Sequence record: PZ386970.1 | Length of the DNA: 64,000 bases | Direction: 5' to 3' (one strand) | DNA from: a phage | Part shown: piece after piece, positions 11,571 to 38,237 of the stretch | Layout of the letters: each line of letters begins with the position of its first letter | Position numbering within the stretch: position 1 is the first letter of the stretch | Program-made: the position numbers and the translations under genes | Notes under the pieces: model-generated | What the model was told of the DNA's origin: nothing | The model's database searches: none | The model's input: the letters and a program-made list of their open reading frames with translations, nothing else

Positions 11571-12569
11571 TTATGATACTAATTCAATCCATGCAGGACG
11601 CAGAACATCTTGCACCATTCGGACTAATTCTTTCTTAACAAGATTCGGATTATCAGATGATGTTAATACAATACCTTCACGAGAAGTTTCTTCCAGAATA
11701 TCTTGAACAGTCAATCCCATCACTTTGCCAAAATCTTTTGGCGTTACTGTCCCAATCTTAGAAATCACATTATTAACACGATTTAATGTAACATAACAAG
11801 CTAGAACATCAAGCAAGTTTTTGTCAATTTCGGTTAATGGGACCTGAGTTTTAATAGGCTTATCAGACTTTTTCTTTTCACTGAATTTAGAGTTCTTGCA
11901 CTTAATAGCTACACGAGTACCGTTTGGCAGCCATTTAGGGAAACAAGGTTTCAGAACATAACCTTCCGCAGTATTATCACCAATAACATAAGCATCAAAT
12001 ACACAATTATTTGCTTCGACAAGGTCTTCTGATGCAGTAGCATTATAAGCGGCTAAGACGGAATCAAGGTCGTTTGGAATCATGATAAGAGAATCAAATG
12101 TTCCACGTCCAAGCATTGGTGCCATTTTAAAACCGAATTCATTACAGATATCTTGCATTTCGTAATCGGTCAAATACGTATTATCACCACTTTCTGTATT
12201 GATAAGGATATCGAACACATAAAAATCTTTTTCACCGTAGTCAACACCTTTCTGGATTCCACCACCAGCGAATTCACCAAATACTTGATATGATACTGCT
12301 CGAGCTGTATACATGAATTCCTGAACGGCTTTAATAGCCTTATCATACTTCTTGAGTACGATTTCATAACCATAAAAATCTTCTGCTGGAAGAATAGGGC
12401 CTGTGCGCTTGGCGCATGTGACGTTGTCACGTTCAATTATTAACGAGAAGTTAGTCCCATGGATTTTCTCACGTGCTACCCAAACACCAGTAGTCAAACC
12501 ATTAGTGTAGAGTTTTTCAATAAACTTAGAGTTGTAGTGGTTTTCAAGACTGCTGTATTTCTTAAACAT
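11571..12569 (-). CDS. rnlB: RNA ligase 2
   Basis: 332-aa ORF; N-terminus [21 protein letters not shown]... and C-terminus ...[14 protein letters not shown] match T4 Rnl2 from memory, including the nucleotidyltransferase lysine motif region EKIHGTNFS. Confidence 0.92.
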
Positions 12570-12688
12570 AAATCACCATTATAAATAATAATATCAAAAT
12601 AATTAGCAGAGACTCTGTCTCCGACCCGATGTTTAATTTGAATGGATATAACCTAGATTCATTATACCATCAAAAAATGTAAAGCATA

Positions 12689-25166: not shown

Positions 25167-25170
25167 GAAA

Positions 25171-25192
25171 AAGGGAGACAACGTCTCCCTTT
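25171..25192. terminator. Bidirectional terminator between gene 54 and the alt operon
   Basis: AAAAAGGGAGAC-AAC-GTCTCCCTTTA; flanked by A- and T-tracts. Confidence 0.65.
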
Positions 25193-25522: not shown

Positions 25523-25552
25523 ATAGTATCACACATCCATGTGCTTGTAAAC
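25523..25552 (-). promoter_or_regulatory. Early promoter motif (GTTTAC-N18-TACTAT) at the 3' end of alt
   Basis: Minus-strand GTTTACAAGCACATGGATGTGTGATACTATCATCC upstream of the ORF starting at 25493. Confidence 0.45.
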
Positions 25553-27639
25553 TATCCTTGAACAAATTTAAACGGAACCGATTCCAAATCCATTAAAGAT
25601 GCTAACAGTTTCAATCCTTTAGGTGCACTAGTTTTTTCTACAAATGAGGCAAAAGATACCGGCTCATCTGATTCGATTTCACCAGTCATAGCAACCACCT
25701 CGCCTGTTTCCATGAGAACATCACCATCGTAAATGACTGCTTCATCCAACTGGTCTGAGGACATAACTTCAGCTTGAATAAATTTAAGGTTTGATTCTAA
25801 ACCTGCACCAGTATCAGATGACGCATCTGTAATTTTATTTATCTGCAAGAGAATGCCTCTAGGCAAAATAATTTCTTGCTCATTAGGGTGATTACTCAAC
25901 TGTCCCGGATAAATCACGTTAACTTTATGGGCGCCATCAATAGCCCATCCAACGTTAACACGGATTTGTTCTGGTGCATGCATAGCTGTTCTTACTTGAC
26001 TAGGAGAAATAGTAACACCTTCGTCATTATTGTCAATGTTAAGCTCTTTGCGAACTTCTTCAGGAGCAAGTCCAAGGGCAACGTTCTCTTTAAACCCACC
26101 GAAAATAATAGGAGCTAGTGAAGTGGAAACATAGTTTCTGAAGTAGAATACCTTATTTTTAACCATTGCTTCGTAAATAGGCATTCTGATAGACTGAGCT
26201 CTATATAACGTTAGTCCTTCAGGTAAACGGTCTCCATTTAAAAACGCCGAATCAAGTCCGTCAATAGCGCGTTTAACTTCATCTTCATCTGCAACATCGT
26301 AAAAATCTGGTTTATAACGTCCTAACAACATATTATTGATATCGGTATACGCAGAAGAGGCATATTCACGAATAGCTCGTTTTTCAGCAACAGAGTATTG
26401 TTTAGGGTCCCGATTCATTGTTATATTAAAGGTGCCTCTAGCCGATTCTCGTGCATAAGTATACATCACATTAGACAAGAACGCTGATTTACGTTGTTTC
26501 CAAGTTTTTTCAGATACTTCAGCTAAAACGTCGTCAGCCAGTTGGAAATTATCTCGTCTAAAATCTTCAAACCATTCGTCTTTAATAGAGTCTGCAATTT
26601 CGTTTGCAGCTTCAACAAAAGCAGCTAATGCTTTAACAGATGTTGTTTTTTCGGTTTTAATTTTCTTAGCAAACTTTTCTAAAGTTGGCTTAATAACACT
26701 ACCATAAGAAACTTCATCAGCAAATCTAAAGGATTCATCAATACGATTATAAATCTTATTTTCGATATCAGCAACTAAAGTGCCTTTTGCTGTGGACGAT
26801 GCTTGGGCTAGTACGATTTCATATGCTTCAGGAAGTAATTCGGCTGTAGCTGGGCCACTAACTTCTTTAGCAGAATTTTCGTATTTCTGGAATAACTCAC
26901 CTTCTTGGCGGTCAGCTTCTAAAGATTGGCTTGCTGCAATAGCACGACGAGAAATTTTAGTACGAGCAATAACAGGCTTATCTTTACGTTTTTCTTCTAC
27001 AGCAGCAATAGAACCAGCGATAGCCGTTTCTTTGGTGACCGTTTCGCCGGTCTTTTTACTCACATAAACTTCGCCAACATCAGAATCCACTTTCGTGTAC
27101 AACTCTGTGTTAATGTTAGGGATGCCTTTAATATCTTCAATGTTGGCATTTTTACGAACCATCATCACATAGGTGTGTTTACCTGTGAATTGATACATTG
27201 CCGACAATACTTTAAAACGACCACCGGTTTTAGTAGAAACTAAACGAGCAAGAAGAGTTTGAAGCTGTTGTCCACGTCCTTTCAATTTCTTGGTAGGGAA
27301 TCGGAACAGAACTGCATCCATACGAAGAGCTTTAACCTGTTCATATACTGTATTGAAAATAGTGTTGATTGCATCAATAGGAGCAGGACCAAGGCCATTT
27401 TTCAATTCAGCGAGATTACCCTTTTCAGATAGACTCATAATAACAACATGAGCGTATTTGTCGCCAAGTTTAACTTGTTTTACAGCGTCGCCTTCGGAAA
27501 GGTAAGAGAATAAACGAACTACAATATTTGTATCAACATCACCAATTTTCCAGACTTGTGGAACTTTAGCTTTAGGGTTCAAATTGACGACAGGAAGACT
27601 GCCTTCAGATTCAAACACTTCATTTAATTGTTCAGACAT
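25552..27639 (-). CDS. alt: Alt ADP-ribosyltransferase (packaged, modifies host RNA polymerase)
   Basis: 695-aa ORF (T4 Alt 682 aa) between ligase and gene 54 as in T4; C-terminal ART-like region. Confidence 0.82.
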   Translation of the reverse strand: MSEQLNEVFESEGSLPVVNLNPKAKVPQVWKIGDVDTNIVVRLFSYLSEGDAVKQVKLGDKYAHVVIMSLSEKGNLAELKNGLGPAPIDAINTIFNTVYEQVKALRMDAVLFRFPTKKLKGRGQQLQTLLARLVSTKTGGRFKVLSAMYQFTGKHTYVMMVRKNANIEDIKGIPNINTELYTKVDSDVGEVYVSKKTGETVTKETAIAGSIAAVEEKRKDKPVIARTKISRRAIAASQSLEADRQEGELFQKYENSAKEVSGPATAELLPEAYEIVLAQASSTAKGTLVADIENKIYNRIDESFRFADEVSYGSVIKPTLEKFAKKIKTEKTTSVKALAAFVEAANEIADSIKDEWFEDFRRDNFQLADDVLAEVSEKTWKQRKSAFLSNVMYTYARESARGTFNITMNRDPKQYSVAEKRAIREYASSAYTDINNMLLGRYKPDFYDVADEDEVKRAIDGLDSAFLNGDRLPEGLTLYRAQSIRMPIYEAMVKNKVFYFRNYVSTSLAPIIFGGFKENVALGLAPEEVRKELNIDNNDEGVTISPSQVRTAMHAPEQIRVNVGWAIDGAHKVNVIYPGQLSNHPNEQEIILPRGILLQINKITDASSDTGAGLESNLKFIQAEVMSSDQLDEAVIYDGDVLMETGEVVAMTGEIESDEPVSFASFVEKTSAPKGLKLLASLMDLESVPFKFVQG

Positions 27640-27698: not shown

Positions 27699-27883
27699 TC
27701 TACAATCGGGAGCAAAGTACGATAAACTTCAAAATTAGGGCCTTTTTCGTACCCATTAACGTTATCTACGAAAACCCGATACGAATTTTCATTAGGAAAA
27801 TCTAATATAATCTGAGAGCAAGAGGTGGAAACATCTCCACCGTCCTTCTTAGCTACAATAACTGTTTCTAAATAAGCTTTCAT
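27695..27883 (-). CDS. Hypothetical small protein between ligase and alt
   Basis: Start at ATG overlapping the ligase stop (TAATG); about 62 aa; no homology recognised. Confidence 0.4.
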   Translation of the reverse strand: MKAYLETVIVAKKDGGDVSTSCSQIILDFPNENSYRVFVDNVNGYEKGPNFEVYRTLLPIVD

Positions 27884-29376
27884 TATAAACCTGTCTGGGA
27901 CCACGGTCCAAATACGTCTTCAAATGAATCCGCTTCTGTTTTATCAAAACGGAACCCTTTAATAATTGGAAGGAAAATACCTACAGTGCCTTCACGTCCT
28001 TTAGAATGAACCCAACCATTGCATTCACAATCAGCAATACGTCCAATCAATTTACCTTCACGAGCTTCGGACATTAATCGTTCACGGTCCAAATCATGAC
28101 GCTCATCTAAAGGAATAAGAACCTTTACACCATCAACTGTTTTATGAGTTGTATCTTTAAAACCTGAACCACAATCGGTTGTAATACGACGACAACGTGA
28201 TACGAGTTCGACACCACCTAATTTGTTAGGGTCTTTAGAGTGTTCATAGTATCCTACAACTTCTAAAGCGATATCAATAACTTCTTTAAATTTAATTAGG
28301 TTCTTAGAGCGTTTGTTTTCCCAGTATGAATCACGGTTTTTAAGGATAATACCTTCAAGACCTTGGTCAACATATTTTTTATAAACCACTTTAGCTTCGT
28401 CGAGATTACGAACTATCTGATTTTCAATTGGCTCAATTCGCTTAAAGCCTTCAGCCATATTTTCAAGAGCAGCAAAACGAACATCATATTTCTGACCTTT
28501 AATTTTGCCATCAGAATAGACTTCATCTAAAGGAACATAGTCCCAGGCTTGAAGAACCATACCTTCCGCTTCTTTAGGAGAAATAGTCCGTTGAAGAGAT
28601 TTATTTGCTAAACCATTTGAAGTGCTACGGTCTGCAACTTGTACTTCTTCAGATTCTTCATTATCACCAAATAAGAACGACAGGTCATTTCCTGAGCTCA
28701 CAGCCTTTTTAATATCAAATGAATGATAAACTAATTCACCGTCGATTAAAACCCCATTAGGGTGTCTTTCACGAGCTTCTTTAGTCATTTCCATTAGTTC
28801 ATCCGCTAATAGAGTAAGACCATGATATTCATTACCGGCACGAGAAAAGAATTGAACACCATCATCGCGAACTTCAGCGAAACAACGAGCACCATCTGCT
28901 TTTAATTGGGCAAATGCCGGCCATTTAATATTTTTAGTAATCAATTTCTCATCATATGCAGATGCTAACATCTGTGGTTGCAATTGAATAAGTCCAGGCC
29001 ACACCTTATTCGCGATAGACACTGAAGCACCTACTTCAAGGTCGCGCATCATTACACGACGAAGGACTTCTACATCATCAGGTTTACCGTCAGCGATATA
29101 ACCCATGAGCTCTTTAATTGCAGCATTACCAGTGAGTTTACGACTGGCTAATGTGAACTCAATAAAATCCAACATGTCATCTAATTCAAGAAGACCATAC
29201 GCTTGAGACCTTTCACCTGGTCCTGGCCATTTCTTAATATAATACTGGATACCACGTGCATATGTTAAACGATACACACGTTCAAGCAATTTGTTGTCCT
29301 TATTTTTCTTAAGGATTTCTTGTTTTGTTTTAGTAGAACCGATCGCAGCTATTTGGTTTAAAATATCTAAAATCAT
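27883..29376 (-). CDS. 30: ATP-dependent DNA ligase
   Basis: 497-aa ORF; strong identity to T4 DNA ligase from memory (KNKDNKLLERVYRLTY..., AFAQLKADGARCFAEVR with adenylation lysine). Confidence 0.95.
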   Translation of the reverse strand: MILDILNQIAAIGSTKTKQEILKKNKDNKLLERVYRLTYARGIQYYIKKWPGPGERSQAYGLLELDDMLDFIEFTLASRKLTGNAAIKELMGYIADGKPDDVEVLRRVMMRDLEVGASVSIANKVWPGLIQLQPQMLASAYDEKLITKNIKWPAFAQLKADGARCFAEVRDDGVQFFSRAGNEYHGLTLLADELMEMTKEARERHPNGVLIDGELVYHSFDIKKAVSSGNDLSFLFGDNEESEEVQVADRSTSNGLANKSLQRTISPKEAEGMVLQAWDYVPLDEVYSDGKIKGQKYDVRFAALENMAEGFKRIEPIENQIVRNLDEAKVVYKKYVDQGLEGIILKNRDSYWENKRSKNLIKFKEVIDIALEVVGYYEHSKDPNKLGGVELVSRCRRITTDCGSGFKDTTHKTVDGVKVLIPLDERHDLDRERLMSEAREGKLIGRIADCECNGWVHSKGREGTVGIFLPIIKGFRFDKTEADSFEDVFGPWSQTGL

Positions 29377-29642
29377 TTGATGTCCTCGATTTTGGTTACG
29401 GTTCTATTATAAGCCACTTCATCTAGAAGCGATTTAAGCGTTTTCTGATAAGTGGTAATCCATTTACCGAGTCCTTCAACATAGTATTCTGAAATGTAGA
29501 TGAACCCTTGTTCAACACACTCTTTAAATATTTCTGCGTCTTTTACTGAACGAAACAATGGCCAGTCTCGAAAGAACATGTTAACGTGACCGTAGTCACG
29601 TGTGGTGTTTTTGCCATCTGTAATATCATGAACTACAAACAT
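29373..29642 (-). CDS. Hypothetical protein (30.1 position)
   Basis: 89-aa ORF coupled upstream of the ligase gene. Confidence 0.5.
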   Translation of the reverse strand: MFVVHDITDGKNTTRDYGHVNMFFRDWPLFRSVKDAEIFKECVEQGFIYISEYYVEGLGKWITTYQKTLKSLLDEVAYNRTVTKIEDIK

Positions 29643-29651
29643 AATTAACCC

Positions 29652-30467
29652 TTAACAATTTATAGACCAAGTCCATTTAGACGAATCTAAAGGAAAGTTT
29701 TGAATCGTCCACCATGGCCGCATATCGGTTGGTCCTTGGGTTCGCCAGGTATACGGATTCGACGGAGCGCCAATTTGATTAGGCCATGCACCTGGACTTG
29801 TTGCACCAGATTCTTTAAGTAAATCCGCCAATCGTTTTAAAAGGTCTTCACGATCTGAATCTGAATTATGCTCGGGTGGAACCAAACGAGATTCAATATC
29901 ATCCCACGTGTGCACACGTTGTGCAGTACGAGGAATATCATCACGTTCACCACGAGCCAACCAATAAATCGGTACATTAAGAATTTCTGCCGCATGGTCA
30001 CAGTGATGAGCTAAATCGTCAACGTAACAAATCACGTTATATTTTGTTTTAGCTAGTTCGAATAATTGTTCCTTTGAAGAATCATGACCACACATCATTA
30101 CTTCAGAAAAGGCGCCTGGGAACAAAGCATTCAAATTAAATTGTCTATTCAATCGAGCATCAATTGAATCACCTAGCGCCGTCACGGCTACAAAATTATA
30201 GTCTTCTTTTAGTTTATTGATAACTCGAAGAGCATCCGAATAAGGCGCTAAGTAACGAATAAAATCAGAGCGATTATATTTTTCTATTAATTGTTTACCG
30301 AGGTTATCATCGGTATTGAATAGTTTACCAGGAGAAATAAATTTTTCGTCCTGAATCATTTTTAAAATATGTTCTAATGGAAGATTATATTTTTGGGCAA
30401 AATAAGGAAGTCCAGATTGCCAGCTTAAACATACACCATCAATATCAGTCAAAATAGTAGGCTTCAT
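29652..30467 (-). CDS. HAD-superfamily phosphatase / 5'(3')-deoxyribonucleotidase-like protein with Trp-rich C-terminal tail
   Basis: 271-aa ORF; HAD motif I DIDGV at N-terminus and motif IV YVDD; 30.2 position. Confidence 0.6.
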   Translation of the reverse strand: MKPTILTDIDGVCLSWQSGLPYFAQKYNLPLEHILKMIQDEKFISPGKLFNTDDNLGKQLIEKYNRSDFIRYLAPYSDALRVINKLKEDYNFVAVTALGDSIDARLNRQFNLNALFPGAFSEVMMCGHDSSKEQLFELAKTKYNVICYVDDLAHHCDHAAEILNVPIYWLARGERDDIPRTAQRVHTWDDIESRLVPPEHNSDSDREDLLKRLADLLKESGATSPGAWPNQIGAPSNPYTWRTQGPTDMRPWWTIQNFPLDSSKWTWSINC

Positions 30468-30931
30468 AAAGAGTCTCTTAATAGGTTTAACACATCAATA
30501 AATTCAGCTTCGGTTAATATTGTATCATCTTTTGTTAGGTGGCTGGCCATGCTGTGCTTCAAAATTTTTCCTTTAGAGGCTTGTAAGGCATCGCGAAACC
30601 CCTTGTTTTGGATCGCTGCTTCAAAATATGCATTTGTATATAATTCTTTCCATGCTTCAGAGTATCTTGAAAATGGAACTCCTAACCAGAAGAGAGTCCC
30701 ATGGTCCTGAGCTCTTGCATAAGACCTTCCAGCTTGCTGTGCGGCCAGTCCTGACAGCCCAAATATACGTCTTTGTTGTTCAACATTTTTCACCTTACAT
30801 CCTTGGAGAAATCCTTCAAGACCTCCGAATTGAATACCATCCATAACAAAAGGCCATTTAGCAAAGTTACTTAATGCACATGACGGCCATTTGAAATTAC
30901 TTCTTATTTCTAATTCAGACATCTTTAACAC
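30464..30931 (-). CDS. NADAR / YbiA-like (DUF1768) protein
   Basis: 155-aa ORF; SNFAKWPFVMDGIQFGGLEGFLQGCK resembles the YbiA/NADAR signature SNF..P...DG....E.(Y/F)(F/L)Q..K; 30.3 position. Confidence 0.5.
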   Translation of the reverse strand: MLKMSELEIRSNFKWPSCALSNFAKWPFVMDGIQFGGLEGFLQGCKVKNVEQQRRIFGLSGLAAQQAGRSYARAQDHGTLFWLGVPFSRYSEAWKELYTNAYFEAAIQNKGFRDALQASKGKILKHSMASHLTKDDTILTEAEFIDVLNLLRDSL

Positions 30932-31133
30932 TTATAATTTCAACATCAGCCCAATGACCGTATCCAGGTATACGGTCTTCGATAGATAAATTTCTGTCAT
31001 TTTTAGGCATTTTAATTGACGTAACGTATGGTTCTAAACGGTTTTCCGCGTAATATGGAAAAACGTCGGTTACACGATAAGTAACTTCAATCATTTCCGT
31101 ACCAAACAATTTCTGGATTAATTTATTCAACAT
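30915..31133 (-). CDS. Hypothetical protein
   Basis: 72-aa ORF in the tightly packed - strand 30.x array. Confidence 0.45.
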   Translation of the reverse strand: MLNKLIQKLFGTEMIEVTYRVTDVFPYYAENRLEPYVTSIKMPKNDRNLSIEDRIPGYGHWADVEIISVKDV

Positions 31134-31320
31134 GTTTCAACCCTTTAATAGGAGATAACTCTTTACCCATACGTATATCAGAAGTCCCATCAACCCATTG
31201 AACGGCATACGCTTCGTTGATAATTCCAGCGGCGGTTTTAAATTCGTGGAGAACTTTAAAAATCATCCCAGGAATTCCAACACCTTTTAATTGGACTGTT
31301 TGTGCTATTAAAAATTTCAT
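31123..31320 (-). CDS. Hypothetical protein
   Basis: 65-aa ORF in the 30.x array. Confidence 0.45.
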   Translation of the reverse strand: MKFLIAQTVQLKGVGIPGMIFKVLHEFKTAAGIINEAYAVQWVDGTSDIRMGKELSPIKGLKHVE

Positions 31321-31374
31321 ATTTTTCCACTTACTAAAGAAATCATTATACTCTAATCCGTCCTTGGATGTAAA

Positions 31375-31995
31375 CTACTTAATGAAATTAATTTCTACCG
31401 GATGAACAACAGGTTGAGCAGTGATATATTGAGTAATTGCTTTCATGACTAGAGCTTCAGAACCAGGATTTTTCTCAACGAATTCACGTGCTTGGTTATG
31501 AGCTTCAAGTTCACTTAGTAAACCACTTCGTTGACATCCACGGTCTTGAGTACCCTGTTCAGATAAAAAGGCGACGATGTATTTTTCATCGTCATACGGT
31601 TTAGACGGTTGAGCAAATGTTCCTTTACTTCCAAAAGGAGAGTTATGACGCCACATCACGCCGTGAGGAGTTTCAACCTTCGTATATTCGTGCGGGCCAT
31701 TTTTCTTAGTTTCTTTCCATGGAACTTCATGGACATGGGTATTAGGATTAGGACATTCAATAAAATGCTCATCTAAATCAGTCGAGAATATTAAAGTAAA
31801 ACAATTACTGAATTTACCAACACCTGCCTGATAAATTTTACCTTCAGAAGTTCTAATTTCACAAACCGAGCCGACATCAGTAACTTCTAAAACTTCAAAA
31901 GGCTCGATAAGGTCATATGAGAACATGTTTTTAAGGCGTGGAGTAATATCCCCATTTTTAAAATTCATTTTATAAAAAGTATTAACTTTAAACAT
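31375..31995 (-). CDS. Hypothetical protein (206 aa)
   Basis: Long ORF with good coding appearance; no recognisable motif; larger than any T4 30.x gene at this position as I recall. Confidence 0.55.
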   Translation of the reverse strand: MFKVNTFYKMNFKNGDITPRLKNMFSYDLIEPFEVLEVTDVGSVCEIRTSEGKIYQAGVGKFSNCFTLIFSTDLDEHFIECPNPNTHVHEVPWKETKKNGPHEYTKVETPHGVMWRHNSPFGSKGTFAQPSKPYDDEKYIVAFLSEQGTQDRGCQRSGLLSELEAHNQAREFVEKNPGSEALVMKAITQYITAQPVVHPVEINFIK

Positions 31996-34492: not shown

Positions 34493-35063
34493 AAAAGTTT
34501 CGAATTTGTTCCCAATTCAGAGAACGAAGATTATTACGAGAGTACTGAATTACTTCAATACCAGCTTGTTTTAGAATGTCTGCCCAATTTTCAGGAGATC
34601 GGTCATATAATTCTGCATATACAACCTTTTTAATACCTGACTGCGTAATAGCTTTAGTGCAATCAGGACACGGAGAAAGCGTAGTATATAACGTAGCACC
34701 TTCAATAGAATTACCTTTACGAGCTGCAAACAAAATTGCATTCAATTCCGCATGGATTTCGTTATTAGCAGACCATGCACTATGAGCGGCCCGATGTTCT
34801 TTAGCCAAAACAAAATTATCCACCCGTCCAAATGCTGTAGTGCCTTCTTTATGCCCGGCAACGATGACCGGGCTTGGTTTATTCTTCAACCAACCGTTTT
34901 CGGATGCATGTTCGCAACAGTTTGTACCACCTGAAGGAGAGCCGTTATACCCAGTAGAGATAATGCGTCCATCTTTTTCAATGACCGCACCAACTTTCCA
35001 TGAACAACATTTTGATTCTTGAGAAATCAGATATGCAATCTGAAGGTATGTGCTAGCTTTCAT
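34482..35063 (-). CDS. cd: dCMP deaminase
   Basis: 193-aa ORF; zinc-binding deaminase motifs HAELNA and PCxxC; matches T4 Cd (193 aa). Confidence 0.95.
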   Translation of the reverse strand: MKASTYLQIAYLISQESKCCSWKVGAVIEKDGRIISTGYNGSPSGGTNCCEHASENGWLKNKPSPVIVAGHKEGTTAFGRVDNFVLAKEHRAAHSAWSANNEIHAELNAILFAARKGNSIEGATLYTTLSPCPDCTKAITQSGIKKVVYAELYDRSPENWADILKQAGIEVIQYSRNNLRSLNWEQIRNFCGE

Positions 35064-36055
35064 TATTGAACCTTATTAATATAAGTTAACAACTCTTTAG
35101 TTTGTTCCCAACTGATGCACGCATCGGTAATGGAAACGCCATAGGACATATTATCAGAAATTTTTTGATTTCCTTCATGTAGGAACGATTCTATCATAAT
35201 TCCTTTGACCAAATCATTAGCTGCTAAATTTTTACCAATACCAATTTGATTGCTATAATGCCCATCAGCGTTTGCATGGCTACAGTCAACCATTACATAA
35301 TGATTCAGACCTACTGCCCTTGCTTTGTTAGAAGCTTCTTGAATATCAGAAGAATGATAGTTCGGGCCGTTGGTCCCGCCACGCAATACGATATGCGTAT
35401 TCTGATTACCTTCAGCTTCAACAATGCCTACAGTACCATCGACGTCCATACCCATATACCGATGAGGCCAGGCGGCACTATACATCGCGTCTGTAGCTAC
35501 TTTAATAGAACCATTGGTTGCGTTCTTGAAGCCTACGCACATCGGTAGACCTGAAGCAATTTCACGATGTGTCTGACTTTCAGTCGTACGGGCGCCAATA
35601 GCAACCCATGAGAAAATACCAGAAAGATACTTAATCGTGAATGGGTCTAATACTTCAGTTGCTAATGGAAGTCCCATACGTAGAAGTTTACGACACAATG
35701 TTCGTGCAACTATAAGACCGTGGTTCATATCAAAACTTCCGTCAAGATATGGATCATTTACAAGACCTTTCCAACCTACGGTAGTTCGAGGCTTTTCAAA
35801 ATAAACGCGCATCACTAACAGAACATTAGGAAGACGAGTTTGAAGTTCAGCCAGACGTTTGCCGTATTCAACAGCAGCAATAGGGTCATGAATTGAACAA
35901 GGACCTACAACAATAAGTTTGCGTGGGTCTTCACCATTCATAATCGAATTAACTTGTTCGCGATGAGAAGCCACTTGTGATGCGTAAGCTTCCGACAAAG
36001 GAATAATCTCAGCCAGTTCTTTTGGAGAAATAAGTTTTCCGACGACAGGTAACAT
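35063..36055 (-). CDS. 3-deoxy-D-arabino-heptulosonate 7-phosphate (DAHP) synthase, class I (AroG/F/H family)
   Basis: 330-aa ORF; blocks LIVVGPCSIHDP, VMRVYFEKPRTTVGWKGL, GARTTESQ, VGFKNATNGSIKVA, IVLRGG, ESFLHEGNQ, SITDACI are near-identical to E. coli AroG; stop overlaps the cd start (TAATG). Confidence 0.9.
   Translation of the reverse strand: MLPVVGKLISPKELAEIIPLSEAYASQVASHREQVNSIMNGEDPRKLIVVGPCSIHDPIAAVEYGKRLAELQTRLPNVLLVMRVYFEKPRTTVGWKGLVNDPYLDGSFDMNHGLIVARTLCRKLLRMGLPLATEVLDPFTIKYLSGIFSWVAIGARTTESQTHREIASGLPMCVGFKNATNGSIKVATDAMYSAAWPHRYMGMDVDGTVGIVEAEGNQNTHIVLRGGTNGPNYHSSDIQEASNKARAVGLNHYVMVDCSHANADGHYSNQIGIGKNLAANDLVKGIMIESFLHEGNQKISDNMSYGVSITDACISWEQTKELLTYINKVQ

Positions 36056-37150: not shown

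Positions 37151-37151
<1 letters not shown>
36960..37151 (-). CDS. Hypothetical protein
   Basis: 63-aa acidic ORF coupled to the pseT stop. Confidence 0.45.

Positions 37152-38237
<1,086 letters not shown>

Follow-up and report, generated by a model that had tools for sequence, protein, structure and literature searches.

The locus analyzed here, within a window of 64,000 nucleotides (the whole stretch of phage DNA that was studied), raises the question of whether a NADAR-like gene, a HAD-family gene, the DNA ligase gene, and the gene for the Alt ADP-ribosyltransferase form one functional module directed against host defense, or whether they are neighbors through conserved gene order. The explanation favored here, to which we give a probability of roughly 0.87 as a whole, is that gene 30.3 is an intact adfN gene encoding an anti-DarTG1 NADAR protein, that the product of gene 30.2 (gp30.2) is a separate HAD phosphatase, and that the gene string reflects synteny.

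In a nucleotide search, a stretch of about 2.1 kb at the locus is 97 to 98% identical to many Escherichia T-even phages, the best annotated match being vB_EcoM_SA79RD at 98.0% identity (Straboviridae; Tevenvirinae; Mosigvirus, the RB69 group). Based on these matches, the source phage is assigned as an RB69-like T-even phage of the genus Mosigvirus, whose type is RB69. Tequatrovirus was rejected as the group, as the nearest annotated relative is a Mosigvirus and gp30.2 is 99% identical to its RB69 counterpart. The minus-strand gene order of 30.5, 30.4, 30.3, 30.2, 30.1, 30 (ligase), alt.1, and alt is common to RB69 and T4 (Table 1). Both of the open reading frames (ORFs) from which the original prediction started, at 30464-30931 (155 aa) and 29652-30467 (271 aa), are present on the minus strand, and the placement of DNA ligase and Alt on the same strand is backed by Pfam and PHROGs matches.

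Table 1. Features of the adfN-ligase-alt region, in window coordinates
Feature	Coordinates	Strand	Evidence or remark
Sigma-70-like promoter, TTTACA-18-TATAAT	31345..31374	-	11/12 consensus matches; upstream of the 30.5-to-alt string
Gene 30.5-like ORF	31123..31320	-	phrog_1690; ~64% identity to T4-type 30.5 gene of related loci; nearest gene to promoter
Gene 30.4	30915..31133	-	phrog_2042; stop overlaps adfN start
Gene 30.3 (adfN), predicted NADAR-superfamily DNA ADP-ribosylglycohydrolase, 152 aa	30464..30922	-	PF08010, T4 identity, fold, residues
Gene 30.2, residues 1-221, predicted HAD phosphatase core with helical C1 cap and amphipathic helix (202-219)	29805..30467	-	
Gene 30.2 tail, residues 222-271 and stop codon, disordered, Trp/Pro-rich, TWRT(P/Q)G motif	29652..29804	-	pLDDT <50
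Gene 30.1 (DUF3045)	29373..29642	-	Pfam PF11243, E 1.4e-26
Gene 30, ATP-dependent DNA ligase	27883..29376	-	DNA_ligase_A_M E 7e-27; phrog_114 E 2e-154
alt, Alt ADP-ribosyltransferase	25552..27639	-	ADPrib_exo_Tox E 6e-28; phrog_802 E 3e-261
Terminator-like hairpin, 10-bp stem then T run	25170..25192	-	First downstream of promoter, beyond alt

From 30.5 to alt.1, stop and start codons overlap or almost abut, with ATGA overlaps at the 30.3/30.2 junction and also between 30.1 and the ligase gene. As a strong promoter lies upstream and no terminator-like site was found on the minus strand between this promoter (31374-31345) and the hairpin at 25192-25170, co-transcription of 30.3, 30.2, the ligase gene, and alt through read-through is plausible. 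The annotation of phage SA79RD has a promoter at the equivalent site and terminators at the same place beyond alt, and it also includes internal promoters, one of them a middle-type promoter within gene 30.1. The predicted co-transcription with ligase and Alt holds with respect to the shared strand and the lack of a terminator-like site in between, and it is qualified by the internal promoters annotated in this relative.

The 155-aa ORF, which begins with GTG at 30931, contains the string SNFAKWPFVMDGIQFGGLEGFLQGCK that had been read as a YbiA/NADAR-like signature. The GTG start was rejected in favor of the ATG at 30922, which overlaps the stop codon of gene 30.4 and agrees with T4 and Mosigvirus annotations as well as with database homologues; it is almost certainly the true start of gene 30.3, giving a predicted product (gp30.3) of 152 aa with the N-terminus MSELEIR. 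The protein falls into Pfam family PF08010 (Phage_30_3) with an E value of 1e-68 and 229.9 bits, against a cut-off of 36. The Pfam NADAR model (PF08719) has no match to gp30.3 at E ≤0.1, a single-sequence phmmer search of gp30.3 against the PDB gave no match, and NCBIfam and PADLOC scans of gp30.3, gp30.2, and gp30.1 returned nothing useful. When a profile of 10 gp30.3 family sequences is compared with the PDB, YbiA (2b3w) is the sole match (E 0.001, 21.9 bits, 53 residues), and the alignment spans SNFAxWPF..DG....E....Q..K, exactly the stretch quoted as the signature. The HMM search suggested as a check on the prediction is consequently divided in its outcome: the Pfam NADAR match is absent, with the protein placed in its own family, but the family profile does reach YbiA.

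Structural comparison points in the same direction. The AlphaFold model of gp30.3 (pLDDT 81.5, pTM 0.81) was searched against the PDB with Foldseek, where E. coli YbiA (2b3w) ranks first (E 1.4e-4, TM 0.66), followed by a Phytophthora NADAR with ADP-ribose (PnNADAR, 8bau; E 0.015) and the Geobacter lovleyi NADAR (8bat; E 0.056). Foldseek probabilities for these three NADAR-type matches are 0.96 to 1.00, and all other matches have E >1 and probabilities of ≤0.03. With the YbiA fold defined as an alpha+beta arrangement of five core helices flanked by small beta-hairpins, the predicted structure places gp30.3 within the NADAR superfamily. As the profile match to YbiA covers the same stretch as the signature and the top three PDB neighbors are all NADAR-type proteins, the SNFAxWP-type signature is not a chance resemblance, and both the signature and the structural comparison originally proposed are borne out.

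Conservation of the catalytic residues extends this assignment. Residues E36, K43, and H123 of the 152-aa T4 protein correspond to E39, K46, and H126 in the numbering of the 155-aa ORF. E39 and H126 (ORF numbering) do not vary across the gp30.3 family alignment, in which K46 is conserved in at least 90% of sequences. E39 and K46 align with the Glu and Lys of YbiA SEHYFQAQK and are identical in T4 AdfN, and H126 is located in the last predicted strand of the gp30.3 model (residues 123-126). None of the conserved catalytic residues, whose absence would have spoken against the prediction, is missing: gp30.3 has E36, K43, and H123, the last being the phage-type residue. Over 152/152 residues, gp30.3 is 95% identical to T4 AdfN, with seven substitutions, none of which is at a known catalytic position, and the gene has the same neighbors, 30.4 and 30.2, that it has in T4 and RB69. 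The C-terminus, ...TEAEFIDVLNLLRDSL, is the same as that of T4, and residues 141-154 are helical in the model. Judged by sequence, gene 30.3 is assigned here as an orthologue of AdfN (T4 gp30.3) with a complete C-terminal helix.

The state of the C-terminus could directly link the sequence to a known phenotype. RB69 is the one DarTG1-sensitive T-even phage in the study of Johannesman et al., and it carries a T insertion at nucleotide 411 of gene 30.3 that leaves the protein 15 residues shorter (PMC11825919). In a DNA alignment, the extra T of RB69 (...TAACTTGA...) creates a TGA stop, whereas the source phage reads ...TAAC-CGAA... at this site and stays in frame. As the frameshift is absent, adfN is intact as far as its reading frame indicates, and the source phage is predicted to be DarTG1 resistant. 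An intact adfN here and a frameshifted one in reference RB69 would predict a difference in host range on DarTG1 strains.

When these results are placed next to published work, the function of gp30.3 can be proposed in some detail. Johannesman et al. (Nat Commun 2025) renamed T4 gene 30.3 adfN and reported that T4 and T2 become DarTG1 sensitive when the gene is deleted, that RB69 is rescued by its expression, that purified T4 gp30.3 strips ADP-ribose from DarT1-modified DNA, that the protein is impaired by E36A, K43A, or C-terminal truncation at the RB69 position, and that AdfN does not counter the thymine-modifying DarTG2 (PMC11825919). Specificity of T4 gp30.3 for guanine-ADPr in vitro has also been described, and gp30.3 proteins form a phage NADAR group with His in the last strand, as opposed to Glu in YbiA and Asp in BC4488 and DarT-linked NADARs (Toxins 2024, PMC11125620). 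Iyer et al. (2022, PMC9503650) had already noted that T4-like phages express their NADAR genes early, together with the ADP-ribosyltransferases. The central claim of the original prediction, an anti-defense activity in which a phage NADAR undoes guanine ADP-ribosylation of the DarT type, is already known, having been demonstrated in 2024-2025 for the 95%-identical T4 orthologue (PMC11825919, PMC11125620), and the locus therefore adds a member rather than a concept.

In the proposed mechanism, the product of gene 30.3 would be made early in infection. The bacterial DarT1 toxin of the DarTG1 defense would place ADP-ribose on guanine bases of phage DNA, and AdfN, acting as a stand-alone NADAR N-glycohydrolase, would cleave the bond between ADP-ribose and guanine in phage DNA, so that removal of the adduct would let phage replication proceed. 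For gp30.3 itself, homology, predicted fold, catalytic residues, and an apparently intact C-terminus are described here, and we infer from the 95%-identical T4 protein that it likely removes guanine-linked ADP-ribose from DNA and confers DarTG1 resistance. Gene 30.2, downstream and translationally coupled, would encode a HAD phosphatase with a small phosphorylated metabolite as its substrate, and nothing appears to tie it to the anti-DarT reaction.

It could be speculated that gp30.3 instead acts mainly on soluble substrates, either ADP-ribose-derived immune signals or, like YbiA, riboflavin intermediates, as YbiA is the nearest solved structure. The T4 protein, at 95% identity, de-ADP-ribosylates DNA and has a DarTG1-specific phenotype (PMC11825919), however, and the last-strand residue of gp30.3 is His and not the Glu of the YbiA family. 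Soluble substrates as the primary role of gp30.3 are largely refuted by these observations, and we regard this reading as extremely improbable.

For gene 30.2, the evidence supports a family-level assignment. The motifs of gp30.2 are DIDGV (D8, D10), T96, K132, and YVDD (D150, D151); among 36 homologues, the four Asp residues and K132 never vary, and T96 is conserved in at least 90%. The second Asp of HAD motif I separates phosphatases from dehalogenases. In the predicted structure, which is a confident model, a Rossmannoid HAD core is accompanied by a four-helix cap inserted after motif I (residues 16-72). As all four HAD motifs are conserved and the cap follows motif I, gp30.2 is predicted to be a catalytically competent, C1-capped HAD phosphatase. 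Over residues 1-195, identity to the T4 and T2 proteins is 86 to 88%, and over the full length identity to T4 drops to 71% because the tail has diverged.

The curated models are less informative with respect to substrate. gp30.2 is below the Pfam thresholds of curated HAD models (HAD_2, 15.5 bits against a cut-off of 23.8), and NCBIfam gives a 12.7-bit match at most. Only five or six of the 36 relatives reach E ≤0.1 for Hydrolase, HAD_2, or NT5C, the figure being six for Hydrolase or for HAD_2. The Pfam NT5C model does not match gp30.2 of the source phage; it is matched by 5/36 relatives at E 0.0029 or weaker, and in the two family representatives with listed bit scores, the NT5C values of 17.1 and 17.4 fall short of the cut-off, 24.8. 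A gp30.2 profile matches cdN (2jao) at E 0.62, and the deoxyribonucleotidase-like 3bwv is among many equally good structural neighbors. The family is large, with 1,072 cluster representatives recovered by a profile search at E ≤0.001; none of the family members scanned against Pfam is above a gathering threshold, and in four longer members (P0176, P0217, P0165, and P0122) no additional Pfam domain gave a clue to function. Little could be learned from the genes around two distant members, although one of these adjoins a true NT5C gene. Literature searches for gp30.2 returned no relevant work. The most likely substrate of gp30.2 is a small phosphorylated metabolite, with a nucleotide as the best guess on account of the sub-threshold NT5C matches, the cdN-like DxDGVxxW extension of motif I, and the 3bwv neighbor. 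The label of HAD nucleotidase given originally can be kept in its first part at the superfamily level, as a HAD phosphatase, on the strength of DIDGV, YVDD, and the fold; with NT5C matches below threshold, nucleotidase is no more than a plausible guess.

The tail of gp30.2, which had been singled out as unusually Trp rich, is indeed so: the 50 residues from 222 to 271 include 6 Trp and 7 Pro, and the Trp count of the last 50 residues is the highest among the 63 ORFs of at least 100 aa in the window. The tail is predicted to be disordered, with pLDDT <50. Of 97 homologues, 58 have a tail of at least 40 aa and 39 have none, and where present the tails are aromatic and Pro rich and diverge fast, even between T4 and the source phage. 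Recurring motifs in the family are TWRTPG and a C-terminal GTGIEYLxxQPT, the latter absent from the source phage. As an aromatic, Pro-rich, variable, and disordered tail with short motifs fits a docking or short-linear-motif region, the tail probably docks to a partner.

Gene order was compared across 78 IMG/VR loci that had been found with the HAD (gp30.2) profile. In 68 of these, the ligase gene lies within 1.2 kb downstream of gene 30.2, often with the HAD gene directly upstream at a gap of 2-3 nt. A NADAR gene is found within 6 kb of the HAD gene in 37/78 loci and within 300 nt in 22/78, and in at least two genomes it lies tens of kilobases away from the HAD-ligase pair. The conserved gene-order partner of the HAD gene is the ligase gene and not adfN, and 30.3 lies next to 30.2 in Tevenvirinae and some relatives but not universally. 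Since linkage of the HAD gene to the ligase gene is far tighter than to the NADAR gene, the supposed module reads as gene-order synteny, and the NADAR-HAD-ligase-Alt string looks like an early/middle gene order conserved among T4-type phages rather than a unit with a demonstrated common function. The original notion of a single functional module is not supported: AdfN by itself is required for the anti-DarTG1 phenotype and, during infection by T-even phages, suffices for it, and 30.2 tracks the ligase gene (68/78). A large HAD family that accompanies the ligase gene in most of the T4-like loci sampled and is above threshold in no curated model is worth characterizing.

This linkage could be taken to mean that gp30.2 works as a 3'-phosphatase on DNA ends and makes nicks ready for the neighboring ligase, comparable to the pairing of PNKP with ligase. 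C1-type caps typify HAD enzymes that act on small molecules, with polynucleotide phosphatases being capless, and the four-helix C1 cap after motif I of gp30.2 argues against such a role. Moreover, HAD_PNKP is not matched by gp30.2 in Pfam, many capped HADs outscore T4 PNK as structural neighbors, and the phage already has PseT (37151-38050) with a HAD_PNKP domain (E 1.4e-58). As PseT is the classical HAD-type polynucleotide phosphatase of the phage, a DNA-end role for the capped gp30.2 becomes less likely; we consider it very unlikely and rejected polynucleotide 3'-phosphatase as an assignment, given the C1 cap, the unmatched HAD_PNKP model, and the presence of PseT.

A different role for gp30.2 can be considered in view of the limits of AdfN activity. 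AdfN-T4 fails to neutralize DarT1 in uninfected E. coli and rescues T5 and Bas25 weakly; T4-GT7 behaves like the wild type, so DNA modification is not the reason for these limits, and the authors propose that a further T-even protein is needed for full AdfN-T4 activity (PMC11825919). The in vivo mechanism outlined above is therefore incomplete. It is conceivable that gp30.2 is this T-even-specific protein, in a two-enzyme anti-DarT module in which it either binds, localizes, or stabilizes AdfN through its aromatic tail, or dephosphorylates an ADP-ribose-derived product and thereby clears the reaction or a downstream signal. In keeping with this, 30.3 and 30.2 overlap by ATGA and sit side by side throughout Tevenvirinae as well as in T4-like phages of Acinetobacter. 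By tblastn, 1,511 phage records have a match to 30.3 and 1,445 a match to 30.2, and the nearly identical host-genus counts of the two genes indicate that both occur in the same phage groups. RB69, in which ectopic AdfN-T4 fully works (PMC11825919), possesses a gp30.2 (99% identical to that of the source phage), and coupling to phosphatases, a HAD 5'-nucleotidase among them, is reported for ADP-ribosylglycohydrolase operons of hosts (PMC9503650). One divergent phage locus (L023) has a NADAR gene that overlaps with a gene for an HD phosphohydrolase, but six other divergent NADAR loci have unrelated genes and no phosphohydrolase as neighbors.

Translational coupling to adfN, presence in RB69, and the fact that no literature was found make gp30.2 a legitimate, if weak, candidate. 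No NADAR gene lies within 6 kb of the HAD gene in 41/78 loci, even though both can share one genome, and it is the ligase gene with which the HAD gene keeps company. In vitro, purified AdfN works without a partner, and T-even phages encode more than 100 other uncharacterized candidate proteins. The linkage data together with the self-sufficiency of AdfN in vitro lead us to keep the probability of a gp30.2 cofactor low. If true, 30.3 and 30.2 would form a two-component counter-defense, which would explain the failure of AdfN-T4 in uninfected cells and its limits in T5 and Bas25. The preferred reading keeps adfN as the anti-DarTG1 gene and gp30.2 as a separate phosphatase.

Comparison with known systems places both proteins in a wider context. 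For gp30.2, the deoxyribonucleotidases cdN/mdN (NT5C) and 3bwv are alike in the HAD core, in the helical C1 cap, and in a motif I of DxDGV followed by an aromatic residue and SGL. The gp30.2 sequence matches to these are sub-threshold, however, many unrelated C1-capped HADs score equally, and gp30.2 has an extra helix and the disordered Trp/Pro-rich tail. For gp30.3, E. coli YbiA (2b3w) is the best structural match and the sole significant sequence-profile match, yet at about 16% identity; unlike gp30.3, members of the YbiA family carry a last-strand Glu, and the family has been connected with N-glycosidase activity on riboflavin intermediates, not with anti-defense. The DarG1/DarT1-associated NADAR antitoxins, such as that of G. 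lovleyi (8bat), share the fold of gp30.3, and their reaction is removal of guanine-ADPr from DNA (PMC11825919). In contrast to these, gp30.3 is without the N-terminal extension, carries His at the last-strand position where they have Asp, and has no linked DarT gene, and T4 gp30.3 cannot stand in for DarG1 in uninfected cells. With T4 AdfN, gp30.3 shares E36, K43, H123, the C-terminal helix, and the genomic position between 30.4 and 30.2, but it lies in an RB69-like Mosigvirus backbone and not in that of T4. Compared with the RB69 allele, the gp30.3 of the source phage is full length, without the +T at nucleotide 411.

Among the 78 IMG/VR loci (L026-L103, each with the HAD gene placed at about 6001), the gp30.2-type HAD gene is linked far more tightly to the DNA ligase gene than to the NADAR gene. 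The ATP-dependent ligase gene lies directly downstream of the HAD gene in 68 of these loci, often separated from it by only 2-3 nt where gene 30.1 is missing. The only other NADAR-phosphohydrolase pairing seen among the divergent NADAR loci is in the phage contig L023. There the first bases of a gene for an HD-domain phosphohydrolase lie within the NADAR gene, which is of the gp30.3 type, and a further HD_4-like ORF comes after the phosphohydrolase gene. Within the window, PseT carries a HAD_PNKP domain, so that two HAD phosphatases, unrelated to each other, are encoded less than 8 kb apart in this phage.

Features of the window and compared sequences
Feature	Sequence	Coordinates	Strand	Match
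gp30.2 tail	window	29652-29804	-	
Gene 30.3	window	30464-30922	-	
Gene 30.3	RB69 (L105)	12226-12681		
30.5-like ORF and 206-aa ORF, between genes 30.4 and 30.7	window	31123-31995	-	phrog_17531 (206-aa ORF)
DAHP synthase, 330 aa	window	35063-36055	-	Pfam DAHP_synth_1, E 4e-75
PseT polynucleotide kinase/3'-phosphatase	window	37151-38050	-	HAD_PNKP, E 1.4e-58
NADAR and HD phosphohydrolase	L023	6001-7177		Pfam HD, E 6e-12 (phosphohydrolase)

Comparison with the homologues P0023-P0120 reveals a strongly conserved gp30.2 core, whereas the tail evolves very fast. Residues 1-195 are about 86% identical to the T4 protein, and the tail can hardly be aligned with that of T4. Short motifs recur in the tails, namely TWRTPG and a terminal GTGIEYLxxQPT, the latter being absent from gp30.2 of both the window phage and RB69.

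The 30.5-like and 206-aa ORFs, the second without a Pfam match, form a small mosaic or variable island adjoining the promoter, a site at which RB69 instead carries gene 30.6. This T-even phage also encodes an enzyme of the aromatic-amino-acid pathway, DAHP synthase; its gene, directly followed downstream by that for dCMP deaminase, is likewise annotated in the related phage SA79RD.

In T4, a 75-aa out-of-frame gene, 30.3', is annotated as nested in gene 30.3. As no ORF of at least 40 aa was found in the other minus-strand frames of the window's gene 30.3, 30.3' is not conserved here, and it may not be a real gene.

DNA alignment of gene 30.3 places an additional T at nucleotide 411 in RB69, a frameshift that truncates AdfN; the window allele lacks this insertion, is intact and encodes full-length AdfN. 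From this difference in sequence, it follows that the window phage should differ from RB69 in its sensitivity to DarTG1.
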